The notes under the pieces: model-generated
What the model was told of the DNA's origin: nothing
The model's database searches: none
The model's input: only the letters and a program-made list of their open reading frames with translations
Translations under genes and position numbers: made by a program
Source: Octopus vulgaris
Lineage: Eukaryota
Length of the DNA: 64,000 nt
Direction of reading: 5' to 3'
Assembly: GCA_951406725.2 (NCBI GenBank)
Contig: OX597815.1
Span: forward strand, 195,176,001 to 195,240,000
Shown here: positions 15,466-16,129 of the stretch, in pieces
Position numbering within the stretch: position 1 is the first letter of the stretch
Layout of the letters: every line of letters begins with the position of its first letter

Positions 15466-15470
<5 letters not shown>

Positions 15471-16129
15471 ACAAATTAAGGAATGGCCTTAATAGGCCAA
15501 TCGTCCACTAGAAAGAGCAGCCAGGACTCAAACCGCCAAGTAGTAGTAATTCAGAAATTAGGTGAAAATTTAAAAACGTTTACCCTAATTCATCTTTATA
15601 CGATAAATTGGTAGCGATAAATTTCTATTGAATTTTTTGCTACCCTAAATTGATTAATTGATGATTTTCTGACTAATTCTGAGATTGAATCGGCAGTTTA
15701 TATTTACTGCTGATAAGTTGGCGCGAATACGATTGTCTTGAAAATTTTGAGACAGATATTCCGGAGGCATTGATACAGACGCCTCGTGTATATCCGTCTC
15801 TCCCGGTTTCTTTACTGATGAAGTGTAACCCATGGTAGATTGACTTAAATTAATTTAATTAAGCTAGTTTACCATTAAAAACACCGAAACGATGCATCGT
15901 ATAAAGATGAATTAGGGTAAACGTTTTTAAATTTTCACGTAATTTCTGAATTACTACTGCTTGGCGGTTTGAGTCCTGGCTGCTCTTCTAGTGGACGATT
16001 GGCCAATTAAGGCCATTCCTTAATTTGTTAAATTCATATATTTAGTCTTTGACTATTTTCTCTTTCCCACTAGACCGCTGGTAGCGATAAATTTCTATTG
16101 AATTTTTTGCTACCCTAAATTGATTAATT
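15466..16129 (+). mobile_element. Hammerhead-bearing non-coding retroelement (retrozyme-like), copy 1
   Basis: 470-bp unit from 15610 restarts at 16080 (50-bp terminal redundancy). 15466-15604 is the inverse of 15896-16033. (TA)n on both sides. Homologous to 62638-63414 and 63444-63846. Confidence 0.8.
15809..15907 (+). ncRNA. Type I hammerhead ribozyme with extended stem II
   Basis: TCTTTA-CTGATGA-AGTGT..long hairpin..ACACC-GAAA-CGATGCATCG-TA-TAAAGA. Stem I TCTTTA/TAAAGA; predicted cut after GUA at 15901. Confidence 0.85.

Follow-up and report, generated by a model that had tools for sequence, protein, structure and literature searches.

The described elements closest to the octopus unit studied here are the metazoan non-LTR retrozymes, e.g. 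the 350-390-bp elements of Mytilus galloprovincialis (Cervera & de la Pena 2020, PMC7229834), which are likewise tandem and ORF-less. According to the text of that paper, the common features extend to one type I hammerhead ribozyme per monomer, a low GC content (<45-50% in the class), thousands of genomic copies and coexistence with autonomous Penelope-like elements (PLEs) that carry minimal hammerhead variants. RNA circles were found for the retrozymes of coral, mussel and axolotl, and PLEs were called 'a strong candidate' for the role of helper (PMC7229834); circles are thus an observation in that case, whereas for the octopus unit we infer them. Other differences concern the size of the monomer (449-493 nt in octopus, against 150-450 in PMC7229834), a helix II extended by a ~45-58-nt hairpin and a 4-bp palindromic helix III. 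The anatomy of the octopus insertions, with a tail having two start sites and two arms set in (TA)n, does not figure in the main text of that paper as consulted. The satellite 2 retrozymes of newt and axolotl (PMC7229834) also have a palindromic helix III favouring double-hammerhead cleavage, but it is of 1-2 bp, compared to 4 bp plus a tetraloop in octopus, where the monomers are larger and the arrays short and dispersed.

In vertebrates, retrozymes have been linked to the pseudo-LTRs (pLTRs) of PLEs (Li, Clavereau & Pollet 2026, 10.64898/2026.07.22.740005). They range from 51 to 972 bp, which includes the size of the octopus unit, and have in common with it an organization going from monomers to multimers, co-occurrence with Neptune and Poseidon PLEs and a proposed mobilisation in trans. 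The link to PLEs is made there by pLTR similarity, with a suggested local growth of the arrays, whereas in octopus it is made by the anatomy of insertions whose arrays look ready-made; the 35 species analysed, as the text describes them, include no mollusc. Mobilisation of animal retrozymes is still a hypothesis, for which this preprint, in the parts consulted, relies on co-occurrence and on pLTR similarity. The endonuclease-bearing PLEs themselves (Neptune, Nematis and Naiad; Craig et al. 10.1101/2021.04.23.441226) resemble the octopus insertions in their (TA)n or AT-rich target, partial tandems, inverted 5'-truncated copy and tail at one end; the octopus unit differs from them by having no ORF and by a tail of ~85-106 nt instead of 30-40. 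Two internal starts of reverse transcription, as proposed for the octopus unit, have been demonstrated for PAc (Frangieh et al. PMC11167929). The ribozyme of the unit has a canonical C3-G8 core, whereas the PLEs sampled in this genome carry a minimal motif of the U3-A8 type, a variant that has been described (PMC4209133).

The preliminary description of this DNA had considered the element as possibly undescribed in its lineage. As far as octopus is concerned this agrees with our literature searches, which returned no paper describing an octopus retrozyme (supplements, Dfam and Repbase may list the unit); neither PMC7229834 nor PMC4209133 uses the word 'octopus' in its main text. As far as the class is concerned it does not hold, retrozymes of this kind being already published (PMC7229834; 10.64898/2026.07.22.740005). 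A curated repeat annotation of O. vulgaris mentions no ribozyme in the parts consulted (PMC13282606), though its library may contain the unit with a different label. We conclude that the unit is a real, recently active, non-autonomous hammerhead retroelement belonging to the known non-LTR retrozymes, from which it stands out through three features: a helix II with a long extension, a tail of ~100 nt and a particularly clear PLE signature.

The window, i.e. the whole 64,000-nt stretch of O. vulgaris DNA that was analysed, was read directly, and the three copies of the unit were found at the positions given to them in the preliminary description. Equally confirmed were the period of 470 in copy 1 (15609-15659 is identical to 16079-16129, 51 nt), that of 449 in copy 2 (63248-63086 versus 62799-62637, 98%), the common 3' end, flanking (TA)n and inverted 5' arm of all three copies, and the ORF-less nature of the unit, in which there is no ORF of at least 120 aa. 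The components of the three insertions are the following.

15466..16129 (+): copy 1 (subfamily A), whole two-armed insertion in (TA)n
15466..15604 (-): inverted 'short' arm of copy 1, 95% match to 15896-16041
15609..15659 (+): last 51 nt of the preceding monomer, i.e. the 5'-truncated end of the long arm of copy 1
15660..16129 (+): the one full 470-nt monomer of the long arm of copy 1, fold z -4.5
15809..15907 (+): type I hammerhead of copy 1, predicted cut after A15901
15809-14/15902-07 (+): stem I of the copy 1 hammerhead
15822-85 (+): stem II of copy 1 with its long hairpin extension, A.C at the closing pair
16034..16129 (+): 'tail' of copy 1 between the two putative RT start sites, short end at ~16033-16044, long end at 16129
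62637..63248 (-): long arm of copy 2 (subfamily B), 163 nt plus one 449-nt monomer
63249..63414 (+): inverted arm of copy 2, starting just inside the core and ending ~50 nt short of the usual short end
63444..63518 (-): inverted short arm of copy 3 (subfamily C, the youngest), 100% identical to 63672-63746
63522..63846 (+): long arm of copy 3, 5'-truncated inside CUGAUGA, with no intact ribozyme

The inverted arm of copy 1 covers the unit between a point 6 nt upstream of the predicted cut and the proximal (short) 3' end, and the tail of this copy holds a covarying terminal hairpin, GGTAGC/GCTACC. Its ribozyme core is as announced, with CTGATGA at 15815-21, GAAA at 15886-89, a palindromic stem III at 15890-99 and the cut placed after A15901; the core of copy 2 is complete on the minus strand, with CTGATGA from 62941 and a predicted cut between 62864 and 62863. 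Copy 3 is without the 5' strand of stem I. To call the three 'diverged copies' was correct in that they are 71-75% alike, but they are not decayed siblings: they represent three subfamilies, one each, and dispersed copies in the genome match copy 3 at 99-100% identity.

When the genome (2.8 Gb, 227 contigs) was searched, each window copy gave about 2,170-2,190 first-look candidates, spread over many contigs. A 50-aa Slx1 exon matches a protein labelled Octopus vulgaris at 100% identity and Argonauta at 80%, which places the host in the genus Octopus. The three subfamilies, about 71-75% alike, have monomers of 468-475 nt (A), ~449-467 nt (B) and 487-495 nt (C), and the GC content of the unit is 33-36%. 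The family hammerhead pattern corresponds to about 2,700 motifs genome-wide, a few of which are chance matches: two ribozyme patterns, different at N7, had 1,539 and 1,160 matches, and their reversed controls 0 and 1. One 26-mer of C has 2,850 exact occurrences, while patterns for A and B were found 233 and 354 times, respectively, the reversed controls giving none. Judged by sequence identity, subfamily C is young, since copy 3 shares 99-100% identity with each of its 40 best matches and the C copies taken in order of position are mostly 92-99% identical to one reference copy. Contigs of sequencing runs carrying three organism labels (X18, X19 and X20) span the C monomer in full, many of them being 95-100% identical to it, so that C would be common to close relatives or to differently labelled samples. 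The A monomer is covered by contigs of four presumed-RNA runs (X1, X2, X5 and X6), three of which contain the end-to-start joint; an identical joint is held by tandem DNA, the RNA origin of the runs is a guess, and such contigs cannot reveal RNA ends, strand or circularity. A fourth and far more diverged subfamily was noticed at L099:6397-6822 (-) (nhmmer E 1e-17), with a palindromic stem III of its own, terminal redundancy, a short inverted head and TA flanks.

Conservation of the ribozyme was studied on an alignment of 37 monomers (13 A, 16 B and 8 C), hand-picked from the best matches. The core and stems I-III were found in all 37, with one core deviation in four of them (U4 in two, G8 in one and A9 in one), and C3, G5, A6, G12-A15.1 and U16.1 are invariant. 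Hammerhead chemistry leaves two positions free, N7 and H17. The former is T in 22 monomers, C in 11 and A in 4; the latter is C, A or T, never G. Pairing is present in 34-37 of the 37 monomers at each of the six positions of stem I, in 35-37 for stem III and in 35-36 for II.2-4; the closing pair II.1 is paired in 26 and mismatched in 9 of the 13 A monomers, copy 1 among them. Covariation between subfamilies is seen in all three stems: at I.1, B has G-C where A and C have A-U, and the pair types are swapped at II.2-II.4 and III.3. Because background conservation is high (in 223 of the 410 ungapped columns, at least 35 of the 37 monomers carry the same base), it is this covariation, rather than invariance, that carries weight. 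Copy 1, with an A.C mismatch at the stem II closing pair 10.1-11.1, and copy 2, with mismatches at I.3, I.5 and II.4, may be poor cutters. For the family as a whole, the conserved core and the pile-up of stops near the cut (see below) lead us to predict that the ribozyme is very likely active.

Outside the core, 11 helices are kept and 98% of the cells are paired over 64 pairs, as compared to 34-51% in slid controls; twelve pairs show a two-sided change, but this whole-unit structure was derived from the same alignment and the changes represent few events between three lineages. The fold is branched and 59-66% paired, with a circular MFE z of -3.9 to -7.9 for five genuine cut-to-cut monomers. 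Stem III would form an intermolecular duplex of -15.9 to -18.7 kcal/mol, versus 0 to -1.0 for the hairpin made of the 4-bp palindrome and its tetraloop, in agreement with the double-hammerhead mode known for type I motifs in tandem (PMC4209133). Rfam recognized no hammerhead family at E<=10 in 15460-16135, and on the window and copy 1 it returned only simple-repeat miRNA noise and weak snoRNA matches; the miss is probably due to the ~45-58-nt hairpin that replaces loop II.

The anatomy of the insertions was established on 39 C insertions (those behind the first 100 pattern matches in genome-position order), the first 60 of 64 A insertions, and 40 B insertions from the start of the list, the window's copy being skipped. 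Leaving aside arms with other ends (7 of 97 in A, 6 of 66 in B), which were omitted, the arms stop at one of two 3' sites separated by ~85-106 nt; the spacing is 106 in C; in A and B it is less sharply defined because of TA-like sequence. Of the 76 two-armed insertions, 75 combine a long end with a short one (25/25 in C, 30/31 in A and 20/20 in B). A TA flank borders 84 of the 90 A arm ends and 49 of the 60 B arm ends, and an arm may contain up to 7 whole near-identical monomers. PLEs are known for a tail at one end only and an inverted copy (10.1101/2021.04.23.441226), and the two-end pattern seen here is that PLE tail pattern; in PAc, where both DNA strands are cut and extended, it reflects the two internal RT start sites (PMC11167929). 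We interpret the inverted '5' segment' as a second cDNA for which the other DNA end served as primer. A pure fold-back of one arm was considered and rejected, arm lengths differing freely (about 3.9 kb versus 0.7 kb in L239), although the junction pairs are in phase within 10 nt in 6 of 25 cases, versus 1.1 expected. That the unit is mobilised in the PLE manner is, in our opinion, highly probable, and the proposal that it is a non-autonomous hammerhead element mobilised in trans by a PLE gains support from its ORF-less tandem monomers, its (TA)n targets, its two-end tail signature and the fact that no fusion to an RT ORF was seen in 307 unit-bearing stretches. A peculiar junction was observed at L118:389-496, where the arms are separated by ~100 nt of T/A octamer-like copies of the adjacent unit sequence; it suggests RT slippage just 3' of the cut region.

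At least two young PLE families with a CX4CX2C linker and intact frames, N1 and N2, reside in this genome, and each has one related copy in the window, given here as context.

23940..25841 (+): N2, a 5'-truncated young Neptune/Nematis-type PLE, with RT end, CX4CX2C linker and GIY-YIG
43558..45230 (+): 5'-truncated copy related to PLE family N1

The clade label follows 10.1101/2021.04.23.441226, as far as consulted. N2 has a U3-A8 minimal hammerhead-like motif and a 49-nt tail; 362 aa of it are 99-100% identical at about 90 loci, many of which have open frames of 753-782 aa. N1 has intact frames of 781 aa elsewhere in the genome and a tail of ~36 nt; the 3' UTR of the 43558-45230 copy contains 102-nt and 64-nt tandem repeats and a minimal hammerhead-like motif. 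Both tails are much shorter than that of the unit (~85-106 nt), and N1 or N2 can be put forward as the helper tentatively, as candidates, the balance being rather against them. A kinship of N2 with subfamily B was rejected, the 9-nt ATTTATTGA end that they have in common being judged too weak.

The preliminary description had itself raised the concern that the unit could be just the pseudo-LTR of an autonomous PLE. Of the 6,136 GIY-YIG candidates in the genome, the best ~150 were scored, and the unit was compared by blastn and nhmmer to 80 PLE-anchored loci (N1, N2 and about six other Neptune-type families) without revealing a related UTR. Its profile matched 3 of these 80 loci, always as a separate TA-flanked insertion; no parent was thus found in this sample, which covers few PLE families. 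Direct fusion of the unit to an RT/GIY-YIG ORF was likewise not seen in the 307 unit-bearing stretches, which partly overlap: 19 of them hold a PLE ORF match, the nearest being 322 nt away, with TA runs in the gap in 18 cases, while the 19th (L253) ends in a TA run. Eight possible fusions (L033, L099, L118, L231, L253, L266, L286 and L385) turned out to be separate insertions. No adjoining ORF was found at 20 loci from the hammerhead list, mostly with divergent motifs and one of them a chance match. The unit is non-autonomous in every sampled case.

What kind of RNA served as template can be approached through the 5' ends of the arms. As the RT starts lie about 130-140 and 225-240 nt downstream of the predicted cut, a cut linear monomer would yield at most about 135 or 230 nt. 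The cut is crossed at least once by 42/64 C, 51/90 A and 32/60 B arms, and at least twice by 21, 8 and 1, respectively; all of these crossing arms require a circle or an uncut multimer as template. The 5' ends are also in excess 1-25 nt 3' of the cut (38 versus 12.7 expected, pooled data). This interval was found in the C data (12 versus 3.5 expected; p 0.006 after x20) and was pre-set for A (11 versus 5.2, p 0.017) and for B (15 versus 3.9, p 2e-5); the A count was lowered from 15 to 11 by dropping L283, the junction of which lies in the stem III palindrome, and L272, because of a deletion in both arms. Six independent arms (L243, L278, L280, L309, L327 and L337) stop <=4 nt from the cut when their sequence is read. 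In the unbiased set of 64 C arms, however, there is no stop within 6 nt of it, many of the near-cut stops are 9-25 nt away, at AT-rich or palindromic spots favouring end-joining, and BLAST ends have an uncertainty of several nt. In L272 (2394-3019), both arms have the same ~100-nt deletion, which removes the ribozyme and has its 3' border exactly at the cut, a structure expected if, in the RNA, the cleavage end had been linked to a trimmed 3' end; this is one event. The stop excess in three subfamilies and the L272 deletion suggest that cut RNAs served as germline templates; hairpins and AT-rich microhomology near the cut could contribute to the pile-up.

Whether circles were used as well is less directly readable from the arms. 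In C, stops near the cut occur in 10/52 first-pass but 2/40 later-pass entries (Fisher p 0.06), which fits a linear monomer plus a circle; A does not behave in this way, its counts of 10/61 and 5/16 fitting partly cut linear multimers or RT pausing. Haplotypes were compared in 24 loci, two of which came from outside the position-ordered list. The median difference is 0.42% between monomers of one insertion and 0.37% between opposite arms (n=11), with a median distance of 2.9-7.4% to other loci and of 0.52% to the nearest other locus. The within-array distance is smaller than the nearest-locus distance in 8 of 17 loci; as the nearest locus is that close, a homogeneous mother array would look alike and circles are not singled out. 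Among the 69 within-array variants, 58 are private, i.e. present in none of the other 23 loci, though some may be assembly errors. A private variant recurs among the monomers of some arrays, every third monomer in L213 and L239 (period 3) and every second in L201 and L226 (period 2), and could come from a multimeric template, conversion or assembly error; such recurrence is not explained by a single monomer circle. Multimer arms fit rolling-circle copying, and a partly cut linear multimer fits too. On the whole, we give somewhat better than even chances to circles having been among the templates.

The reading that we favour, and hold to be probable, is that the unit is a non-LTR retrozyme: its tandem transcripts would cut themselves into RNAs of unit length, which would probably circularise, and the RT/GIY-YIG protein of a PLE would copy them in trans into new sites. 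It starts from the tandem ORF-less monomers, the conserved core and the covarying stems. Adjacent ribozymes would pair via the 12-nt palindromic stem III into a double hammerhead, so that tandem transcripts would be cut well and a lone circle poorly, and the monomers would be closed by a host ligase of the RtcB type, by analogy with published retrozymes. From the insertion anatomy and PAc biochemistry, the PLE protein would then cut (TA)n on both strands, and cDNA synthesis would be primed by each DNA end at one of two internal sites separated by ~85-106 nt. On its way back, each cDNA would pass the ribozyme site as many as 7 times, and the head-to-head joining of the two would produce the inverted '5' segment'; some of the templates would be cut linear RNAs, on which the RT stopped at or shortly before the cut. 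The insertions might even record the whole cycle, a dimeric PLE protein priming both DNA ends at two fixed sites on one circle, rolling several times from each and joining the cDNAs head to head, with cut linear monomers leaving their stops at the ribozyme site, a possibility to which we assign a little less than an even chance. If true, this would provide direct genomic evidence that a PLE whose UTR is unrelated writes retrozyme arrays in a single step, through rolling-circle reverse transcription, and the ~100-nt structured tail would be the recognition module.

A PLE could also mobilise a non-autonomous element of this kind without circles, with linear read-through transcripts of arrays, uncut or partly cut, as the only templates. 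The proportion of later-pass entries that stop near the cut in A (5/16) agrees with this, as do the repeated or periodic variants inside arrays, the sister loci with identical haplotypes (L206, L207, L214 and L225) and the use of unprocessed RNA as main substrate by PAc in vitro (PMC11167929). We nevertheless find it rather unlikely: private variants predominate (the 58 of 69 above), the later passes in C show no stop excess (2/40 versus a 4% background), circles are the main form of the mussel retrozymes according to PMC7229834, and 5' truncation should presumably shorten arrays, yet the youngest subfamily has the longest arms. It is improbable that the unit is the pseudo-LTR or 3' end of an unsampled autonomous PLE and its copies truncated products, given head-to-tail whole monomers, up to 7, without coding remnant, no unit-ORF fusion in the 307 stretches, and sampled intact PLEs with unrelated UTRs and U3-A8-type minimal motifs. 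Such an origin would, however, be in keeping with the type I hammerheads that are standard in PLE pLTRs (PMC4209133) and with the match of Xenopus retrozymes to pLTRs (10.64898/2026.07.22.740005), and the GIY-YIG candidates scored were the best ~150 of 6,136. An ancestral pLTR origin, which is possible even if no direct unit-ORF junction exists genome-wide, has in our estimation about one chance in two.

Local expansion of dispersed single pLTR-like monomers by unequal crossing over, i.e. a minisatellite, has been proposed for vertebrate retrozymes (10.64898/2026.07.22.740005) and would account for the periodic variants of some arrays, but the octopus arrays end at two fixed RT start sites and have ragged 5' ends, and both inverted arms are often multimeric and of one haplotype, as if ready-made on arrival; we consider this highly improbable. 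Hardly any more credit can be given to a viroid-like agent that would replicate from RNA to RNA and be endogenised time and again by a PLE RT, even though the unit has the size of a viroid, a strong fold and a fast turnover into subfamilies, and the heterogeneity of mussel circles was left unexplained in PMC7229834. The fold is branched, with its 59-66% of paired positions, and not a rod, and the genomic arrays suffice as sources. An Avsunviroidae-like replicon has, by definition, ribozymes in both polarities; there is no CUGANGA on the opposite strand of copy 1.

The interest of the octopus family lies in a PLE tail and two-arm signature carried by an ORF-less unit, in a young subfamily of thousands of copies and in neighbouring PLEs with intact frames. 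The identity of the helper, the circular or linear nature of the template and the role of the ribozyme become testable with the published in vitro PLE assay. Two published results speak against the favoured reading: insertion by PAc in vitro does not require the hammerhead (PMC11167929), and of 9 Xenopus retrozyme dimers, 8 failed to cut in vitro (10.64898/2026.07.22.740005). The family also adds a likely source of circular RNA to cephalopod transcriptomes.

Other small repeats were encountered along the way. An unrelated compact type I hammerhead-like motif, with a CCGATGA core and a GUC triplet, lies at 57830-57870 (-), ~230 nt from a short TA run, and probably belongs to another small ribozyme-bearing repeat. 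Type I hammerheads with a long loop II occur at L109 (=L039), L110 and L092 in unrelated small repeats, including one inverted pair, and the octopus genome probably contains several more retrozyme-like families. An abundant 184/217-nt repeat forms short tandem arrays in both orientations at 17688-18063, 39394-40822, 41796-42163, 49328-50180 and other places; ARAGORN found no tRNA gene in it, and we take it to resemble a SINE-like or PLE-dependent unit. The segment 52390-52836, which had no Pfam match, is presumably a fragment of a Mariner-like transposase, by its motif, and the region 52390-55711 contains two overlapping inverted pairs of ~300 nt that are 94-98% identical.
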